From assembly GCA_017462795.1 (NCBI GenBank), contig JAFTQL010000015.1, forward strand, positions 7,825-71,824: a DNA stretch of 64,000 bases, read 5' to 3'. Source of the stretch: Clostridia bacterium. GTDB lineage: Bacteria > Bacillota > Clostridia > Oscillospirales > CAG-272. Position 1 is the first letter of the stretch; each line of letters begins with the position of its first letter. Below, one piece after another: positions 9,844 through 17,251 of this stretch. The notes beneath the pieces are model-generated. The model did no database searches. It was not told the origin of the DNA and saw only the letters and a list, made by a program, of their open reading frames with translations. Position numbers and translations under genes: made by a program.

Positions 9844-11937
9844 ATGACCAAGAAGATTCCCGAAATATTCGGCTGTATGGTTTTCAGCGACGAGGTAATG
9901 CGTGAAAGGCTTCCCAAGGAGGTCTACAAATCCCTTACCAAAACTATCGCCACAGGCAGGACTATCGACGCATCCATAGCGGACGTTGTCGCTAACGCAA
10001 TGAAAGACTGGGCGATAGAGAAGGGAGCGACTCACTATACCCACTGGTTCCAGCCACTCACAGGTGTTACCGCGGAGAAGCACGATAGCTTTATCTCTCC
10101 CGTGGGCAACTGCAAGGTGGTTATGGAGTTCTCGGGAAAAGAGCTGATCAAGGGTGAGTCCGACGCTTCCTCATTCCCCTCGGGCGGTCTTCGCGCCACC
10201 TTTGAGGCGAGAGGATACACCGCGTGGGATCCCGCGTCCTATGCTTTTGTCAAGGACGGAACGCTGTACATACCCACCGCGTTCTGCTCCTACACGGGCG
10301 AGGCGCTTGATACAAAGACCCCCTTGCTCCGTTCCATGGACGCCATCAATGCTCAGGGCTTGAGAATACTTCGCCTCTTCGGCGACAGCAATTCCAAGAG
10401 GCTGAACATCACCGTGGGTGCTGAGCAGGAGTATTTTATCGTCGATAAGGAAAACTACGACAAGCGCAAGGATCTTATTTATACGGGCAGAACTCTGTTC
10501 GGCGCTCCCGCACCCAAGGGACAGGAGCTTGAGGATCACTATTTCGGTCCTCTCAAGACCCGTATCAGCGCGTATATGGCTGATCTTGACGAGGCGCTGT
10601 GGAAGCTTGGCATCAATTCCAAGACAAAGCACAATGAGGCAGCCCCCGCTCAGCATGAGCTTGCGCCTATTTACGAGACCACCAATATGGCTGTTGATCA
10701 CAATCTTCTCACCATGGAGTACATGAAGAAGATAGCGGAGAAGCACGGACTTGTCTGCCTGCTTCACGAAAAGCCTTACGAGGGTGTCAACGGCTCGGGT
10801 AAGCACAACAACTGGTCTATCTGTACTGACACGGGCAAGAATCTGCTTGACCCCGGCAAAACTCCCGCGGAGAACGCAAAGTTCCTGCTCATTCTCGCCG
10901 CTATAGTCAAGGCGGTTGACGATTATCAGGATCTTATGAGAATATCCATTGCTTACGCGGGTAACGACCACCGTCTCGGAGCGGATGAAGCGCCTCCCGC
11001 CATCGTGTCCATTTTTGTGGGCGAGGAGCTGGAGCAGATAATCAAGTCTATCGTAGACGGCACGTCCTACAAGGGCGCAAAGGCGGGTATCATGGATCTG
11101 GGTGTTCCCACCGTGCCTACCTTCCGCAAGGACACCACCGACAGAAACAGGACATCTCCCTTTGCCTTTACGGGCAACAAGTTTGAGTTCCGTATGCTCG
11201 GTTCTTCTCAGAATATCGCTATGCCAAACATCGTTCTCAACACGGCGGTAGCGGAGAGCTTCAAGCAATTTGCGGATGTTCTTGAGGTGGCTGAGGACTT
11301 TGACGCGGCTGTCAGCAGGCTGACAAAGGAGACCTTTGCGGCACACATGCGTATTCTCTTTGACGGAGACGGATATTCCGAGGAGTGGGAAAAGGAAGCC
11401 GCCGCGCGCGGACTGCTCAATCTCAAGACTTCTGTTGAGGCTTACAAGTATTTCAATCTTCCCAAAAACGTAAAGCTGTTTATTGATCACGGCGTTATGA
11501 GTGAGGTGGAGATCAACTCACGCGAGGAGATATATTTCGAGAATTACTCAAAGATAGTCAATATCGAGGCGCTTACCATGATAGAAATGGCGAGCCGCGA
11601 CATTATTCCCGCGGTAAACGCCTATGTTGCCGAGGTTTCCGATCAGGCATCGGCAAAGCTTGCGGTAATGCCCGATATCGATGTGTCTGTTGAAAAGAGC
11701 ATTATCTCTGAGCTTTCCGACCTCAACGCCAAAGCATACAAGGCAATGCTCGCGCTCAAGACCGCAGAATCCGACGCGGCAAAGATAGCGGATGCTGTTG
11801 CCCGTGCCGAGGCATATTGTGACAAGGTCATTCCCGCTATGAACCTTCTCCGTTCTTATGTAGACGCCATGGAGCCCATTACGGCATCCGATTTCTGGCC
11901 TCTGCCTACCTACGGTGATCTTATGTTCAGGGTTTAA
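9844..11937 (+). CDS. glnA: glutamine synthetase type III
   Basis: HYTHWFQPLTG, AEKHDSF, DASSFPSGGLRATFEARGY, NGSGKHNNWS, DRNRTSPFAFTGNKFEFR; 697 aa. Confidence 0.95.
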   Translation: MTKKIPEIFGCMVFSDEVMRERLPKEVYKSLTKTIATGRTIDASIADVVANAMKDWAIEKGATHYTHWFQPLTGVTAEKHDSFISPVGNCKVVMEFSGKELIKGESDASSFPSGGLRATFEARGYTAWDPASYAFVKDGTLYIPTAFCSYTGEALDTKTPLLRSMDAINAQGLRILRLFGDSNSKRLNITVGAEQEYFIVDKENYDKRKDLIYTGRTLFGAPAPKGQELEDHYFGPLKTRISAYMADLDEALWKLGINSKTKHNEAAPAQHELAPIYETTNMAVDHNLLTMEYMKKIAEKHGLVCLLHEKPYEGVNGSGKHNNWSICTDTGKNLLDPGKTPAENAKFLLILAAIVKAVDDYQDLMRISIAYAGNDHRLGADEAPPAIVSIFVGEELEQIIKSIVDGTSYKGAKAGIMDLGVPTVPTFRKDTTDRNRTSPFAFTGNKFEFRMLGSSQNIAMPNIVLNTAVAESFKQFADVLEVAEDFDAAVSRLTKETFAAHMRILFDGDGYSEEWEKEAAARGLLNLKTSVEAYKYFNLPKNVKLFIDHGVMSEVEINSREEIYFENYSKIVNIEALTMIEMASRDIIPAVNAYVAEVSDQASAKLAVMPDIDVSVEKSIISELSDLNAKAYKAMLALKTAESDAAKIADAVARAEAYCDKVIPAMNLLRSYVDAMEPITASDFWPLPTYGDLMFRV

Positions 11938-11961
11938 GCCTTGGTATTGACCTTAATAATC

Positions 11962-11997
11962 AAAAAAGATGCTTCTTTGAGGAGCATCTTTTTTTTA
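11962..11997 (+). terminator. intrinsic terminator of glnA
   Basis: AAAAAAGATGCTTC-TTT-GAGGAGCATCTTTTTTTT. Confidence 0.8.
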
Positions 11998-12000
11998 TAT

Positions 12001-12160
12001 AAAAATAAAACTCGCTAAGCGTGCAGCAGCGCGTGCGAGTTTTTTCCTTATGACATACAGATGATCACTCATCCACAAAACAATATTTTCTCGATCGATC
12101 CCAACTCTTTAAAGTTCTTGAAGAGGTTTGGAGAAACTTCTTTCAAGAAGTTTCTCCAAA
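12001..12160. repeat. composite intergenic repeat, copy 1 (hairpin A + ATGATCACTCATCCACAAAA + family B hairpin)
   Basis: Homologous to 42931-43121. Confidence 0.75.
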
Positions 12161-12247
12161 AATCGCATCCCGCACTCCCGCATCATATTTTGTATAACAA
12201 AAAGAGCAACGCGTCACTTGCGTTGCTCTTAAAAGCATATTCACTTA

Positions 12248-12658
12248 TCACCAGCTGACGGTAATGTCGGTGAGTCTTCCGCATATGTAATCCTGAACCA
12301 CACCCGTGTAGCTGCCGTCGTACTTGCCCTCAACTGTCATGGTAACATCGGCGTTGGGCATTTCCTGTCCCTCGGGCCACTCAAGGACCATCAGTCTTGT
12401 ACAGCAAGCTGTGGCGTCGTTATATACGCAGTATATGTCCGCGCCGTCCTCGCTCATGGCGACAAAGCCTTGCATCTTGACTGTCTTGTCCGCAAAAAGG
12501 TCGGGGAAAGCGCTCATATTACTGAGCTGTGTCTGGATCATGGTGGCGCTCATGGACGTAAGATCGATGTAATTCTCATCCTTCGGTTCGTCCTCTCCGC
12601 AGGAAACAAAGCAAGCAAGGCACAAAAGCGCCAACATAAGGCAAATAATTTTTTTCAT
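12248..12658 (-). CDS. lipoprotein with Cys-Cys motif (accessory gene of the metal ABC operon)
   Basis: Signal peptide ending FVSC; CVYNDATACCT motif; start overlaps the permease stop. Confidence 0.7.
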   Translation of the reverse strand: MKKIICLMLALLCLACFVSCGEDEPKDENYIDLTSMSATMIQTQLSNMSAFPDLFADKTVKMQGFVAMSEDGADIYCVYNDATACCTRLMVLEWPEGQEMPNADVTMTVEGKYDGSYTGVVQDYICGRLTDITVSW

Positions 12659-13497
12659 TTTCTGACTCCTCCTAAAATTGCGCCCGCAAGTGAAAATCCC
12701 GCAAAGGCAACTATATCAACAGCAACGATGGTAGGTCCGACAGGCGTTCCCAGAATGGAAATGAGTATTCCCAAGGCGGAACAGCAAACGGACAGCACCG
12801 CCGCGCATATTGTGACCGACTTAAAGCTCTTGAACACACGCATTGCCGACAGCGCGGGGAAAATTACAAGCGCGGATATCAGCAAGGAGCCCACAAGATT
12901 CATGGCAAGAACGATTATAACGGCAATGACGATAGCGATAAGCAGATTGTAAAGACCTGCCTTCATGCCCGTTGCCTTGGAAAAGCTTTCGTCAAAGGTA
13001 ACGCAGAATATCTTATTGTAAAACAGCAGGAACACCGCCACCACAACGATGGACAGTATGACGCACATCCATACGTCAAATGCGGTAAGCGTCAGTATGG
13101 ACGTAGCTCCAAACAGAGTAGCGCACACGTCACCCGACAGGTTATTGGACTTAGAGAACACGCTCATCAAAAGATATCCGAGAGCCAACGCACCCACCGA
13201 TATCATCGCCACGGACGCGTCTCCGTTTATCTTTGCGTTCTGTCCCGTCCGCAAAAGAAGCACAGCGCAGATTATGGTAATGGGCATTACCAGCGCCATC
13301 TCGTTTGTCAGTCCCACAACGCCCGCCACAGCCATAGCCCCGAAAGCCACGTGGGAAAGTCCGTCACCGATAAAGGAAAATCTTTTAAGCACCAGCGTAA
13401 CACCGAGAAGCGAGGAGCAAAGCGCGATAAGCACTCCTGTTATCATGGCGTACCGGACGAATGAATACTCAAAATATCCGAAAAGCTCGTTAAGCAT
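12655..13497 (-). CDS. Zn/Mn ABC transporter permease (ZnuB/ABC-3 family)
   Basis: SFIGDGLSHVAFG, VGSLLISALVIFPALSA motifs; probable start MLNELFGY. Confidence 0.9.
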   Translation of the reverse strand: MLNELFGYFEYSFVRYAMITGVLIALCSSLLGVTLVLKRFSFIGDGLSHVAFGAMAVAGVVGLTNEMALVMPITIICAVLLLRTGQNAKINGDASVAMISVGALALGYLLMSVFSKSNNLSGDVCATLFGATSILTLTAFDVWMCVILSIVVVAVFLLFYNKIFCVTFDESFSKATGMKAGLYNLLIAIVIAVIIVLAMNLVGSLLISALVIFPALSAMRVFKSFKSVTICAAVLSVCCSALGILISILGTPVGPTIVAVDIVAFAGFSLAGAILGGVRK

Positions 13498-14218
13498 TGC
13501 CATCTCCCCCTTCCTGCGCGTTCTCCACAGCGTCAAACATTCTTCCAATGTCGCTCTGCGCGTATTCATGTCTTGTGCCGAAGAACACCGTCTTGCCTAT
13601 ATGGAGTATGTGCGTGGCGTATTTCATTGCCGCCGCTATATCGTGGGATATCATGATAACTGTAATGCCGTCCTTGCGGTTAAGCTCGGAGATCAGATTG
13701 TACATGTCCACTGTCACCTTGGGATCAAGTCCGGAAACAGGCTCGTCAAGGAGCAACAGCTTTCTTGTCGCGCACAGGGCGCGGGCAAGCAGAACTCTCT
13801 GCTGCTGACCGCCCGAAAGCTCACGGTAGCATCGCTTTTCAAGAGAGGTGATGTTCATCCTCTCCATAGCCGACGCGGCAAGCTTCTTTTCCTCCTTATT
13901 GTAAAAGGGGCGCAGACCGCATCTTGCCTGACAGCCGGAAAGCACTATCTCACGCACGGAGGCGGGGAAATCCTTTTGTACCACTGTCTGCTGGGGCAGA
14001 TAACCTATCTCATTTCTGTTGAGCCCATCGCCTGTGGTTATCTTGCCCTTCATAGGCGCGTGCAGTCCGAGCACTGTTTTCATAAGCGTTGATTTTCCCG
14101 ATCCGTTCTCGCCGACGATGCACAGGTAATTACCTTCATTGACCGAAAAATTCAGATCGGAGAGTATTTCTTTTCCATCATATCCGAGGGACACACCCTC
14201 ACAGCTGAGTAATGACAC
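13490..14218 (-). CDS. Zn/Mn ABC transporter ATP-binding protein (ZnuC-like)
   Basis: GENGSGKST, GYLPQQ, DFPASVRE, LSGGQQQR, LLLLDEP, ISHD. Confidence 0.92.
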   Translation of the reverse strand: MSLLSCEGVSLGYDGKEILSDLNFSVNEGNYLCIVGENGSGKSTLMKTVLGLHAPMKGKITTGDGLNRNEIGYLPQQTVVQKDFPASVREIVLSGCQARCGLRPFYNKEEKKLAASAMERMNITSLEKRCYRELSGGQQQRVLLARALCATRKLLLLDEPVSGLDPKVTVDMYNLISELNRKDGITVIMISHDIAAAMKYATHILHIGKTVFFGTRHEYAQSDIGRMFDAVENAQEGGDGNA

Positions 14219-14229
14219 GGAATACCTCC

Positions 14230-15204
14230 TTAATTCAAGGCTTCCGTAAAGGAAGCGAGATTGCTCTCCATAACGGAGAGGTAGTCAACACCGTCAGCCA
14301 CGTCCGCCGCAGTGACCGCCTGAAGAGAGTTTACGGACACGATCTTAGCGTTCTTGGCGGTTGTCGCGCCTATAACGGTATTGGTAAAGTCCATGAGCTC
14401 AGAGCCGTCGATGTTCATGACATAACCAAGGGACAGCTCGTCTATCTTGTTTGCAAGACCTGCTATGACCTCGGGAGTGGCGGCAGTCTCGGTGGAGCAG
14501 CCGTCAAATGCGGCGTAATACTCAATGCCGTAGTCATGGCAAAGGTAAATAAAGGGAAATCTGTCGGTAAAGACCACTGTCTTGTTCTTGGCGTTCTCCA
14601 CAGCCTCGCTGTATCTCGCGTCAAGGCTGTTGAGTTTTTCGGTGTAGGCGGTGAGATTTTGAGAATATGTATCCTTGTTCGCCTCGTCCGCTCTTGAAAG
14701 ACCGTCGGCAATTATCCTGCAAGCTTCCGCGGCGTTTCTCAGCGACAGCCATATATGCTCGTCAAGCTCATGCTCATGGTCGTGACCGTGGTCGCTCTCT
14801 TCTCCAGCTTCTTCTTCGTGATGGCTGATGGCAGCCTCAAGCATTTCCTCCATCTCATCCATGAGATTGATGACTATCCTGCTCTCGTTGGTGGAATTTT
14901 TCAGCACGTCCTCCACCCAGGAGTCGGACTCGCCGCCAACGTAAATAAACAGGTCGCAAGCGCCTATCTTTATAATATCATCGGTTGTGGGCTGATAGTT
15001 GTGCAGATCCACTCCGTCGTCAAGAAGCATGGTAAGCTCGGCGTCCTCCGCCTTATCGCCCAACAGCTCCTCTACCCAGTCGTACACGGGAAATACCGTG
15101 GTCACAATGCTGATGCCGTCCTTTTTTCCGTCATCATTGCCGCAACCCGCGAGTATGCCCGTGAGCATTACAAGCGCGATGATCGCGCATATTATTTTCT
15201 TCAT
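14230..15204 (-). CDS. Zn/Mn ABC transporter substrate-binding lipoprotein (ZnuA/AdcA-like)
   Basis: Lipobox LAGC; DLHNYQPT; His/Glu-rich loop HHEEEAGEESDHGHDHEHE; DEHIWLS. Confidence 0.92.
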   Translation of the reverse strand: MKKIICAIIALVMLTGILAGCGNDDGKKDGISIVTTVFPVYDWVEELLGDKAEDAELTMLLDDGVDLHNYQPTTDDIIKIGACDLFIYVGGESDSWVEDVLKNSTNESRIVINLMDEMEEMLEAAISHHEEEAGEESDHGHDHEHELDEHIWLSLRNAAEACRIIADGLSRADEANKDTYSQNLTAYTEKLNSLDARYSEAVENAKNKTVVFTDRFPFIYLCHDYGIEYYAAFDGCSTETAATPEVIAGLANKIDELSLGYVMNIDGSELMDFTNTVIGATTAKNAKIVSVNSLQAVTAADVADGVDYLSVMESNLASFTEALN

Positions 15205-15211
15205 AAATAAA

Positions 15212-15308
15212 AAACCTCCAAATCAAATAAGAACTTTTTTGCATGCCGATCGAACCCTGCCGAAGCAGGGTAAAAAAACGCCTGAGTCCTTATTTAATTC
15301 AGAAGCTT
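15212..15308 (-). promoter_or_regulatory. Shine-Dalgarno-sequestering mRNA helix between the leader ORF and the substrate-binding-protein gene
   Basis: On the mRNA, AAGCUUCUGAAUUAAAUAAGGACU (15308-15285) pairs at all 24 positions (6 G-U) with AGUUCUUAUUUGAUUUGGAGGUUU (15235-15212). Internal C(UUCG)G hairpin at 15271-15254. Confidence 0.7.
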
Positions 15309-15584
15309 GACCTTCATCATAACGGGAGTATGGCACACGGCACCATGATATTTGGATACAAACACATGGACAACAAGGCATGAAACCATCGCGCAGATGC
15401 CGCAAAGCGTAAGCGTCACGCTCTGTAACAGCTTTTCGTTCACTCCGAACTGACAGCAAATGCCGCAACTACCGTCAACGCAGTCGTGATGCAGCACACC
15501 CACTCCGCAAACAGACACGAAAAGTATGACAAAACAGACTGCCACCGCAGCCATTGTAACAGCTATTGTAGTCCGCTTAGCCAT
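15294..15584 (-). CDS. small Cys/His-rich membrane protein; putative leader peptide of the metal ABC operon
   Basis: GGGAGG SD; hydrophobic segment, HHDCVDGSCGICC, second hydrophobic segment, C-terminal TPVMMKVKLLN; first ORF after the promoter. Confidence 0.7.
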   Translation of the reverse strand: MAKRTTIAVTMAAVAVCFVILFVSVCGVGVLHHDCVDGSCGICCQFGVNEKLLQSVTLTLCGICAMVSCLVVHVFVSKYHGAVCHTPVMMKVKLLN

Positions 15585-15619
15585 ATCCGACCTCCCAAAT
15601 ACATTTTAAACCATTGTAT

Positions 15620-15648
15620 AGTATAACATACACGATTTGTTTTGTCAA
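15620..15648 (-). promoter_or_regulatory. sigma-A promoter of the leader/metal ABC operon
   Basis: TTGACA (15648-15643), 17 nt, TGn-TATACT (15625-15620). Confidence 0.7.
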
Positions 15649-15682
15649 GTGGGAAAATCAAATTACTCATTACTCCGAATTT

Positions 15683-16690
15683 TCATGTTTTCGATCGCTT
15701 GACGGTGTGTGGCGGACGGATGCCGTTGTGTATGTATTCGTAGCTTTCCAGCAGAAGCTCTCTGGCTATTATCCTGCGCAGATCTCCCGTAGGTCCTGCC
15801 ATGTGGGGCATGAGGATTACGTTGGGCAACGAGAACATCGCAAGGTCCTCTTCCACGCAAAACGCTTCCGACAGCGGTTCACGCTCAAAAACATCCAGAA
15901 CAGCGCCGAACCTGCCTACGGAAAGCGCGTTTATAAGCGCGCTCTGCCTGATGATACCTCCGCGCGAGGTGTTGACAAGCAACGCGCCGTCACGTATAAG
16001 ACACAACTGCTCGTGATCGATCATATACCCGTCCTGTTCTGAGACAGGTGTCTGCACACAGATAATGTCACAGTCGCGGAAAATATTGTTCATGGGTATC
16101 TGGGTCATTCTGAGTCGTGCGCACTCGCGATTGGGGATAACGCGGTCGTCGCTGATGTAGAGCTCCACGCCGAAAACGGTCAGATACTTCGCCAGCGCGG
16201 CGGAGATATCGTTGTAGTTGACGATACCGACCTTCTTTCCCACAAGTCCGCGGTTTGTGTCCCAGGCGTGCTTCCATTCGCGGTTGTATTTGAGGCGGTA
16301 GCTGTATTCGGGGATGTTGCGGAGAGCCGACAGTATATACGCCACCACGCCCTCCGCCACCGAGGCGGAGTAATATGCCTGTCCCGATATCACCTTTATT
16401 CCCGCCCGCCATGCCTCACGGCTCATAAAGGGTTGCGGTGTTCCTCCGAGGTGTGTAAGCAACCGCAGTGTGGGTGCCGTCTCAAGCATTTCGGTGTCAA
16501 GCATGGGAGCACCCCAGCAGGTCACATACGCCTGACATCCCGCCATCAGCTCCGCCGCCTCGGAAGAGGTCATGTTTCTCGCGTAAGGATTATAGACCAC
16601 CTCGCCAAGGCTTTCGGCAAGGCGGATATTTTCACTTGTAAAAAAGGAATCAAAGGTCCTTCCTCGGGGACAGGATATAAGTATCTTCAT
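15683..16690 (-). CDS. D-2-hydroxyacid dehydrogenase family protein (degenerate Rossmann motif)
   Basis: SVAEGVVAYIL, LVNTSRGGII, VLDVFEREP, MPHMAGPT; start MKILISC after GGAGG. Confidence 0.82.
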   Translation of the reverse strand: MKILISCPRGRTFDSFFTSENIRLAESLGEVVYNPYARNMTSSEAAELMAGCQAYVTCWGAPMLDTEMLETAPTLRLLTHLGGTPQPFMSREAWRAGIKVISGQAYYSASVAEGVVAYILSALRNIPEYSYRLKYNREWKHAWDTNRGLVGKKVGIVNYNDISAALAKYLTVFGVELYISDDRVIPNRECARLRMTQIPMNNIFRDCDIICVQTPVSEQDGYMIDHEQLCLIRDGALLVNTSRGGIIRQSALINALSVGRFGAVLDVFEREPLSEAFCVEEDLAMFSLPNVILMPHMAGPTGDLRRIIARELLLESYEYIHNGIRPPHTVKRSKT

Positions 16691-16782
16691 TTTATTTCCT
16701 CCGTTTCCTTTATTATACAACCAAAAAATTAAGAAAGAATGAAATTCGGACAGATACCCATATTGAAAATTTTATTTAGCTA

Positions 16783-16844
16783 TTGACAAACAACCGTATT
16801 AGTGATATAATACAGTTGAACTGTATTAATTGTGTAATACGGTT
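16783..16844 (+). promoter_or_regulatory. sigma-A promoter with two tandem YtrA-type operators
   Basis: TTGACA 16783-16788, 17 nt, TATAAT 16806-16811. AACCGTATTA-N6-TAATACAGTT (16792-16817) and AACTGTATTA-N6-TAATACGGTT (16819-16844). Confidence 0.8.
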
Positions 16845-16876
16845 TGAAGAAAAAGGGATGGGAGGCTTTTTGCATT

Positions 16877-17251
16877 ATGATAAATTTTGACGCTTTGATA
16901 ATTGAAGACGGTATCCCTATTTATTTGCAGATCGTGAGGCATATCAAGCGCGGTATCGTGTCGGGGGTGGTAAAGGATCGCGACGAGCTTCCGTCAAGGC
17001 GGGTGCTGTCGGCTTTTCTTGGGGTAAATCCCAACACCATACAAAAGGCATACCGCATTCTGGAGGATGAGGCGCTGATAGAGTCTCATTCGGGCGCAAA
17101 GAGCTATATGAGCCTTGACGGGGCGAGGATAGCGGCGGTGCGCGACGAGCTTGTGGAGGCGGATGCCAAAAGCTCTGTGGAGGCGCTCAAGCAGATGGGC
17201 GTTACCAAGGAGCAGGCGATCGCTTTGATAGAAAAATATTGGGAGGAGTGA
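16877..17251 (+). CDS. GntR family (YtrA subfamily) transcriptional regulator
   Basis: PIYLQIV, LPSRRVLSAFLGVNPNTIQKAYRILEDE; GGGAGG SD. Confidence 0.92.
   Translation: MINFDALIIEDGIPIYLQIVRHIKRGIVSGVVKDRDELPSRRVLSAFLGVNPNTIQKAYRILEDEALIESHSGAKSYMSLDGARIAAVRDELVEADAKSSVEALKQMGVTKEQAIALIEKYWEE

Follow-up and report, generated by a model that had tools for sequence, protein, structure and literature searches.

The leader locus and its stop/Shine-Dalgarno helix

We analysed a 64,000-nucleotide (nt) stretch of contig JAFTQL010000015.1 (positions 7,825 to 71,824; assembly GCA_017462795.1, Clostridia bacterium, lineage CAG-272), hereafter the window, in which a putative zinc-importer operon on the reverse strand opens with an open reading frame (ORF) of 96 amino acids (aa; 15294-15584, -). 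We read this ORF as the first cistron of the operon and as a cis-acting leader. It starts with an ATG, 7 nt upstream of which a Shine-Dalgarno (SD) sequence, GGGAGG (15591-15596, -), can be read from the sequence, and is preceded by a promoter-like site of the sigma-70 type (15620-15648, -), in which TTGACA and TATACT are separated by 17 nt and a TG stands before the -10 element (11 of 12 matches). The product runs from MAKRTT through a hydrophobic stretch (transmembrane segment 1, TM1), HHDCVDGSCGICC and a second hydrophobic stretch (TM2) to TPVMMKVKLLN and the stop, so that a loop with histidines and cysteines (H/C loop) lies between TM1 and TM2 and a conserved tail ends the protein. Within this loop, H32-H33-D-C35-V-D-G-S-C40-G-I-C43-C44, the codons for H33-D-C35-x4-C40-x2-C43 (15456-15488, -) specify a candidate metal-binding motif; the tail, T86-P-V-M-M-K-V-K-L-L-N96, is encoded at 15297-15329 (-).

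The next gene encodes a ZnuA-like lipoprotein of the cluster A-I metal-binding type with an acidic/His-rich loop (14230-15204, -; PF01297, 2.5e-62), for which the nearest NCBIfam models, AdcA and AztC, both score under their cut-offs. It is followed by a ZnuC-like ATP-binding cassette (ABC) ATPase (13490-14218, -; PF00005, 1.6e-29) and a ZnuB-like ABC-3 permease (12655-13569, -; PF00950, 9e-44), the likely start of which, ATG 13497, overlaps the stop of the ATPase gene. The gap between the leader and znuA measures 89 nt and is structured; the later junctions of the operon abut or overlap.

The structure in question is a long helix that joins the end of the leader to the SD of znuA. Its 5' arm (15285-15308, -), the anti-SD strand, starts with the final four sense codons and continues through the stop (15296-15294) to 9 nt beyond it (AAG CUU CUG AAU UAA + 9 nt), whereas the 3' arm (15212-15235, -) includes the znuA SD, GGAGG (15219-15215), located 10 nt ahead of the znuA ATG (15204). 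By hand count, 15308-15285 and 15235-15212 pair at 24 of 24 positions, 6 of them G-U. The minimum free energy (MFE) structure computed by RNAfold for 15320-15195 (-) contains exactly this 24-bp helix at -43.6 kcal/mol, compared with a mean of -25.2 +/- 3.4 kcal/mol for shuffled sequences (z -5.39), none of 200 of which folds as well. The complementary strand of the helix region folds weakly, at -20.3 kcal/mol (z -1.67), a value that 12 of 200 shuffled sequences equal or surpass, and therefore the structure belongs to the mRNA. Inside the helix loop lies a hairpin, ACCCUGC-UUCG-GCAGGGU (15254-15271, -), which is not followed by a U-run. It occupies the place where about one third of the related loci carry a branched, terminator-like element (see below); the window spacer lacks the base stem and the U-run of that element and retains the UUCG hairpin as a remnant only, so that the SD helix is the sole visible device in the window.

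A first-pass annotation of this DNA had described the ORF with its two hydrophobic segments and TPVMMKVKLLN end, the 24-of-24 pairing with 6 G-U pairs and the GGAGG in the 3' arm, the C(UUCG)G hairpin in the loop, the restriction of the pairing to the mRNA strand and the lack of a full Zur-like palindrome at the promoter. All of these were recovered at the positions and with the values given above; as regards the last, a search of 15585-15700 for inverted repeats (seed 6, length >=7, within 30 nt) returned none, a result with which a weak or non-palindromic operator would still be compatible.

A leader family with two conserved motifs

The window leader has no match in Pfam or NCBIfam, and a word-indexed homologue search with this single protein returned the leader itself as the sole match. 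Six-frame searches of related genomes gave weak matches, namely, ORFs with the Cys motif and the tail; two relatives, L002 and L004 (L numbers denote related loci), end in RTPVFLKVCLLN and ETPIGLKVKLSN, respectively. Of 301 genomes from the same taxonomic family, 35 gave a match to a three-sequence profile; an exhaustive phmmer search (E <=1e-3) recovered 25 representatives, nearly all of 95-103 aa, a scan of species-representative genomes yielded 60 leader loci, and a profile of 81 members found 149 proteins. Among the 120 of these 149 that were listed, none has a precomputed Pfam domain and all named ones are called 'hypothetical protein'; a profile search of PDB sequences produced chance-level matches only (E >=0.58). 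From 94 ORF matches, we kept 89 full-length loci ending in a stop, of which 87 have a callable downstream gene and 79 remained after near-identical spacers were collapsed. For the 81-member alignment, L001, L025 (which contains N) and L101 (with a doubtful start) were excluded from the reference list and a further subset was left out. Gene starts in the related loci were set by a simple SD rule, and a few spacers may be wrong.

Judging by record titles, most carriers belong to Clostridia/Bacillota, and others are Fibrobacter, Treponema and Brachyspira as well as one metagenomic bin each of Spirochaetales, Synergistales, Erysipelotrichaceae and Coriobacteriales. Isolates that carry the leader include Eubacterium callanderi FD (L087), Butyrivibrio proteoclasticus P6B7 (L062), Anaerofustis butyriciformans (L080), Owariibacterium komagatae (L077; Owariibacterium is a genus of Oscillospiraceae) and Brachyspira catarrhinii Z12 (L057). 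When the first downstream gene was typed by a local phmmer search against the Pfam-typed proteins of the window, it proved to be ZnuA-like in 71 of the 87 loci; in 14 it encodes a MacB-type ATPase and has an FtsX/MacB_PCD permease gene behind it, and two cases were unclear; thus, 85 of 87 leaders adjoin either a ZnuA-like or a MacB/Zrg-like ABC system. A jackhmmer scan for genes that end no more than 250 nt upstream on the same strand, which may undercount, placed a Fur-family gene 3-40 nt upstream of the leader in at least 19 of 79 loci; the one example that was checked matches PF01475 (1.6e-15). The order fur-like gene, leader, znuACB is found in L017, L019, L025, L031, L045-L049, L065, L068, L071-L073, L082, L083, L090 and L100. 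We read these upstream genes as likely Zur genes.

Across the 81 aligned sequences, C35, C40 and C43 are invariant, C40-x2-C43 forming a CxxC, H33 is conserved in at least 90%, and the loop consensus reads E-A-x-H-D-C-x-G-E-D-C-P-x-C, whereas the sequences of both hydrophobic segments vary freely. By the positive-inside rule, rather than by the output of a prediction tool, the basic N-terminus, the acidic loop and the basic segment after TM2 point to an N-in/C-in hairpin that would place the metal motif outside. AlphaFold2 (AF2), run on the family alignment, predicts helices at residues 2-27 and 41-82, a loop at 28-40 and a coil tail at 83-96, with a mean predicted local distance difference test (pLDDT) score of 78.7 that drops to ~65 in the tail. 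Of 100 sequences, 94 place the last Cys of the CxxC 53-56 residues from the C-terminus, 57 of them at exactly 55, despite poor conservation of the intervening sequence; the N-terminal side of the motif varies more, from 39 to 56. One 118-aa variant (L107:1177-1533) has an enlarged Cys-rich loop (~9 Cys) along with the usual tail, TPVCLKVKLSN, and a MacB-type ATPase downstream.

The tail, [TS][PL][VI]x[LM]K[VI][KR][LM]x[ND], stands directly before the stop in all 89 full-length matches. Its second position is P in 44 and L in 35 of the 79 loci; accordingly, the family tail contains at most one Pro, and RAPP is absent. At positions -11 to -4, the amino acid is kept and synonymous codons are used freely: Lys is encoded by AAA (35) or AAG (34), Thr by all four ACN codons and Val by GTC (24), GTG (20), GTA (13) and GTT (13). 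By contrast, the last three codons are skewed towards CUU-UCG-[AG]AU, where CTT encodes 35 of the 64 Leu residues and TCG 23 of the 33 Ser residues, Asn is AAT in 38 of 41 cases and Asp is GAT in all 25; these end codons, together with UAA or UGA, are complementary to SD regions of the ..UCCGGAGG type. The tail is also kept where the anti-SD follows the stop (L077, L078 and L087). Because positions -11 to -4 are synonymously free and the last three codons are biased to the anti-SD, the tail is under peptide selection and its end additionally under RNA selection. A DNA pattern for the tail matched 11 sites in 10 of the 301 genomes, and its reversed control matched none in the same 301 genomes. 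All 11 sites are family members, the enlarged-loop variant L107 among them, so we rejected the notion that the tail is a module common to other protein families. An SD-like pause site in the tail (AAGG in L-K-V) was likewise discarded, given that AAA is as frequent as AAG for Lys.

The position of the stop/SD helix shifts between loci, and column covariation was therefore not used; we judged its conservation from per-locus MFE folds and from cognate versus non-cognate duplexes. In L002 and L004, the codons of L-x-N and the stop fold onto the SD of the next gene despite differing sequences. Of 87 loci, 73 have three or more SD bases paired. In the non-redundant set of 79, the SD core pairs close to the leader stop (-21 to +15 nt) in 52: its partner falls in the last six codons or the stop in 34 and 0 to +15 nt past the stop in 18 (e.g., L053, L077, L078, L087 and L095). 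The partner is located slightly further upstream in the ORF in 8 loci, elsewhere in the spacer in 3 and downstream of the SD in 1, and 2 loci with long spacers were skipped. Cognate tail/SD duplexes average -14.6 kcal/mol over the 79 loci, compared with -9.5 kcal/mol for tails paired with the SD regions of other loci and -9.2 kcal/mol for a control segment of the same ORF; none of 10000 permutations reached the cognate mean, and the cognate SD ranks first among the 79 in 14 loci and within the top tenth in 39. To judge from these predicted duplexes, the locus-specific complementarity amounts, in effect, to covariation. The anti-SD moves between the codons and the 3' flank yet stays adjacent to the stop, which is hard to explain without selection for nearness to the terminating ribosome. 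As in regulatory arrest peptides, a structure that hides the SD overlaps the end of the leader in the window and in 52 of 79 loci, and the C-terminal residues are kept at the peptide level as well as in the RNA.

The first-pass annotation had expected that znuA-like genes elsewhere would be preceded by leader homologues, that HxCxxxxCxxC and TPVxxKV[KR]L would be conserved and that the stop/SD helix would persist at homologous loci. The downstream gene counts, the Cys/His and tail alignments, and the stop-proximal pairing with its stronger cognate duplexes bear it out on each point. Its description of the leader as a Firmicute analogue proved too narrow, given that the family also occurs in Spirochaetota, Fibrobacter, Synergistales and Coriobacteriales.

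The leader-importer spacers are 50-170 nt long and structured, and often carry a terminator-like element. A conserved branched RNA sits in the loop of the long helix in 28 of 87 loci by a strict pattern and in 32 of 79 by a looser one that admits a few false matches. It consists of a base stem, ACAAGGG../..CCCUUGU, and upper hairpins GUCUGCC..GGCAGGC and CGGC..GCCG, followed by U5-7 and often by GCGCC (L013:1414-1487 (-), L017:1813-1888, L026:1415-1485 (-), L049:7309-7381 and ~25 further loci), and its stem begins 7-16 nt past the leader stop. MAFFT and RNAalifold applied to whole spacers captured the base stem only; a trimmed alignment of 23 loci was needed, for which RNAalifold predicted 15 pairs, 7 of them with compensatory changes. 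As modelled, this element resembles an intrinsic terminator built around a three-way junction. Rfam 15 (E up to 1) gave no match to the spacer within window positions 11900-17000 and, across 20 related loci, returned a tRNA and two sub-threshold chance matches, all in L021 and none in a spacer. Two kinds of unusual spacers were seen: in that of L014, 445 nt long, the terminator-like element is separated from the SD by an insert of ~350 nt with very high GC content, and those of L034 and L035 contain two copies of a GCUUAAUGACGAAAG box, the second of which overlaps the SD.

Proposed mechanism and its alternatives

We consider translation-dependent unmasking of the znuA SD to be the likely role of the leader. 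A ribosome with a stop codon in its A site covers the next ~9-12 nt, as follows from footprint geometry. Positioned at the leader stop, it would keep the whole 5' arm single-stranded and expose the znuA SD, and since the SD would be free only while the ribosome is at the stop, translation of the importer would depend on translation of the leader in cis. Beyond this, we infer ribosome arrest and zinc sensing by the leader. The conserved tail would act in the exit tunnel, slow termination and thereby set the time for which the SD stays open. During the pause, TM1 and the H/C loop would already have emerged from the ribosome, and TM2 would still be in the tunnel or next to it. Binding of Zn(II) by the loop might then, through folding or insertion, pull on the chain and relieve the pause; work with a zinc finger and SecM reportedly showed that zinc-driven folding of small domains generates force on an arrested chain. 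Under zinc sufficiency, the SD would close again and the importer would be off, whereas under zinc scarcity the SD would remain open, a logic suited to an uptake system. Where a Fur-family gene lies upstream, any control by the leader would be a second layer and no replacement for Zur. A pause at termination is favoured because plain coupling leaves the conservation of the 11-residue tail and the fixed 55-residue ruler unexplained. The full model, combining the pause with the response to zinc, is plausible, if a little short of an even chance. It is rather unlikely, although worth stating, that this is the first zinc-sensing nascent-peptide switch, in which the tail would arrest termination, the Cys3His knuckle, 55 residues back, just out of the ribosome and threaded outward behind TM1, would bring release through Zn(II)-dependent folding or insertion, and the SD would close again once external zinc is sufficient; in many loci, a branched intrinsic terminator would supplement this switch. 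The leader peptide may have an additional function as a mature protein.

CruR (Bp2923, a DUF2946 protein of Bordetella pertussis) resembles our leader as the first ORF of a metal-importer operon with a nascent CxxC, in its conserved C-terminal motif at a conserved distance from the CxxC, in the long structured spacer and in the proposed logic, whereby arrest means ON and metal binding relieves arrest and means OFF (PMC9426467). The spacing of the two motifs of CruR is conserved and functionally important (PMC9426467). The differences from CruR concern the metal, copper as opposed to the zinc context here (ZnuABC, Zrg-like systems and a Fur-family neighbour), the C-terminal motif, RAPP as opposed to [TS][PL][VI]xLKVKLx[ND]-stop, and the device in the spacer, Rho-dependent termination as opposed to a sequestered SD with an intrinsic-terminator-like element (PMC9426467). 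Moreover, the leader has two TM helices, and its arrest is a conjecture. CutF of Rhodobacter capsulatus is likewise a membrane-targeted leader that senses metal outside the cytoplasm and is followed by a stem-loop shielding the ribosome-binding site, which melts when a ribosome stalls at the leader C-terminus (10.1101/2025.02.05.636593). According to the same source, CutF stalls at a Pro-rich motif with involvement of EF-P, whereas the leader tail has one Pro or none, and copper induces the stall and switches a detoxifying enzyme ON, whereas importers would be regulated here (10.1101/2025.02.05.636593). CruR and CutF set a precedent for the coupling of metal to arrest through a nascent peptide with a CxxC (PMC9426467; 10.1101/2025.02.05.636593).

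CutF is a member of DUF2946, whereas our leader does not match this family. The DUF2946 model (PF11162) gave no match to the window protein at E up to 0.1 or to any of 7 typical members at E up to 1, did not figure in the top 25 families by number of matches from the 81 members at E up to 10, and found nothing in 5 genomes holding family members at E up to 0.01. In an embedding search, DUF2946-bearing clusters were the nearest annotated ones, with a score of 0.86 that lies below the 0.9 bar and is a lead only. The leader shares with DUF2946 proteins the CxxC, the conserved motif spacing and the position at the head of metal-gene operons; on the hidden Markov model (HMM) searches and the lack of a RAPP or Pro-rich motif, membership was rejected. 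The leader family appears to be independent of DUF2946 in origin and to have spread horizontally with the importer among anaerobes of several phyla. In MifM-yidC2 and SecM-secA, an N-terminal membrane or secretion segment precedes a C-terminal element at the ORF end, the downstream SD is held in a hairpin that overlaps the final position of the ribosome, and force on the nascent chain is the proposed release signal. The leader resembles these systems in its N-terminal membrane segment, terminal element, hairpin-held SD and proposed release by force, but differs in that metal importers take the place of the Sec or YidC genes downstream and in that it carries a metal-binding motif; there is no sequence relation, and arrest of the leader is, again, only conjectured. 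By analogy, the layout fits leader control through a sequestered SD, as in CutF and MifM, and CruR-type relief of arrest by metal, and the leader-peptide interpretation of the first-pass annotation, which had invoked SecM/MifM and CutF/CruR, is partly supported, though not in its Firmicute-only scope.

The main alternative, which we regard as possible if on the improbable side, is that the product of the ORF is a true component of zinc ABC importers, either a small two-helix membrane subunit or a metallochaperone, with the stop/SD helix serving ordinary coupling. KdpF is a small first-cistron transporter subunit, CbtB is a proposed small subunit of a cobalt transporter, and stop/SD helices are known for plain coupling. 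In a role like that of CbiN, CbtB or KdpF, the outward-facing H/C loop would capture zinc or pass it on, the strand-like tail, in which V/L and K/S alternate, would bind a partner protein, for example, the ABC ATPase common to both transporters, and coupling would fix the order and ratio of synthesis. The confidently predicted AF2 helical hairpin with its coil tail, the fixed length and motif spacing, as in structured small proteins, the invariant Cys3His site and the constant company of transporter genes all speak for such a subunit, as do matches of CbtB (PF09489) to 14 of the 81 members (best E 0.0066; 11-15 bits versus a cut-off of 27) and a single weak match of CbiN (TIGR01165; E 0.18). 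However, no family match, CbtB and CbiN included, attains its curated cut-off, and permeases of two unrelated architectures, ABC-3 and MacB/FtsX, go with the same tail. Plain coupling of a small membrane gene with a metal transporter shares with the locus the terminating ribosome that exposes an SD, but such junctions are usually short, and the long structured, often terminator-bearing spacer is unlike the abutting subunit-gene junctions of the same operon. Conservation, too, is limited to the loop motif and the last 11 residues, which are the best conserved part after the Cys motif; the stop is fixed and the TM sequences are free. A complex prediction for ZnuB, ZnuC and the leader from alignments gave a score of 0.00 with a mark of 0.32 and, run without controls, weighs neither way. 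The subunit and leader readings are not exclusive and can both hold. CutF itself was, according to the CruR paper, initially conjectured to be a copper chaperone (PMC9426467).

A purely RNA-based switch or attenuator that binds a ligand or protein, with the conservation of the ORF tail as a by-product, is improbable. The bias of the last three codons fits an anti-SD, and the three-way-junction element with its U-run and compensatory changes, present in many loci and matching no Rfam family, is what such a device might look like. Yet the helix does not reach positions -11 to -4 of the tail, where the amino acid is kept and synonymous codons vary freely; the N-terminal 85 residues, too, show conservation at the protein level, Cys3His and its spacing included; and the window has neither the branched element nor the U-run. 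That the helix is incidental, or serves mRNA stability or processing, with the ORF and znuA under independent control by a Fur-family regulator, likely Zur, is very improbable: the upstream Fur-family genes, the one such gene elsewhere in this genome and the 25 of 79 loci without stop-proximal SD pairing in MFE folds agree with it, but no shuffled sequence matches the window fold, no permutation matches the cognate duplexes, and the SD partner lies next to the stop in most loci despite their different sequences.

Several points weigh against the leader reading itself. The loci are interrelated, so that counts and statistics overstate their independence, most carriers are metagenome bins, the cross-phylum placement of which needs care, and every structure is a thermodynamic prediction. 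Not all loci have the helix: 13 of the 79 pair fewer than three SD bases, and in 12 the SD pairs elsewhere. To our knowledge, the tail, which is devoid of a Pro-rich or RAPP-like element, resembles no known arrest motif. In the loci with a branched element, a ribosome at the leader stop would at most abut the terminator-like stem, the role of which falls outside the model. The adjoining Fur-family regulator could be enough for zinc control, and both the confident AF2 hairpin, by which the leader looks like a stable small membrane protein, and the sub-threshold CbtB matches point to a subunit. Furthermore, CruR is described as poorly structured, in contrast to the AF2 hairpin here (PMC9426467).

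If the leader reading is correct, nascent-chain metal sensing would be a general, convergent solution, reached through a second, unrelated peptide family, and zinc homeostasis would gain an input beyond Zur, plausibly extracytoplasmic zinc, along with a new arrest motif acting at the stage of termination. On the conservative reading, a widespread 'hypothetical' family that lacks a Pfam or NCBIfam model belongs to the ZnuABC-type operons of anaerobes. A search of a limited literature collection, without supplementary files, revealed neither a zinc-responsive leader or arrest peptide nor an account of this leader family, and we rate the independent family, its tail motif, the metal context and the combination with an intrinsic-terminator-like element as new.

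Neighbouring genes and spread of the operon

In the window, the operon ends with a gene for a 136-aa lipoprotein (12248-12658, -), which recurs in related operons and is followed by an intrinsic-terminator-like site that closes the operon (12202-12230, -). The lipoprotein has weak sub-threshold matches to DUF1980_C (E 0.018) and TIGR03943 (E 0.0033), and 23 of 87 related loci have a recognisable relative, placed behind ZnuB or immediately behind ZnuA; the protein is thus a conserved, though uncharacterised, component of these zinc operons. The usual gene order is thus small ORF, ZnuA, ZnuC, ZnuB and lipoprotein, although many loci end before the position of the latter. Upstream of the promoter-like site, which belongs to the operon itself, the window encodes a 2-hydroxyacid dehydrogenase (15683-16720, -). 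The sole Fur-family gene found in this genome, which is 55% complete, sits on another contig. A lookup of sequencing runs listed no RNA run with the window sequence.

Compared with the window, ZnuB and ZnuC are 66-78% identical in many loci (L046-L100), whereas the leader is just 16-39% identical; for ZnuB, identity amounts to 70% in the Brachyspira isolate and 68-69% in the Treponema bins. This difference suggests that the whole operon spread horizontally among gut and rumen anaerobes, with a leader that probably evolves fast outside its two motifs.

The MacB_PCD/FtsX permeases encoded behind the leader in 14 loci carry long His/Glu-rich extracytoplasmic stretches (L002:2459-3265, L004:2460-3257 and L099:7980-9236), and in L099 the permease gene is followed by an unassigned gene of 318 aa. 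The Zrg zinc importer of Vibrio has a MacB-like permease architecture (PMC9820375). By analogy, the MacB/FtsX systems behind the leader may be Zrg-like zinc importers of Bacillota. Finally, the promoters of L016, L019, L020, L027, L052 and L084 contain, as noticed by eye, a TTGACAAA(C/T)CGAAAA-like sequence just past the -35 element.

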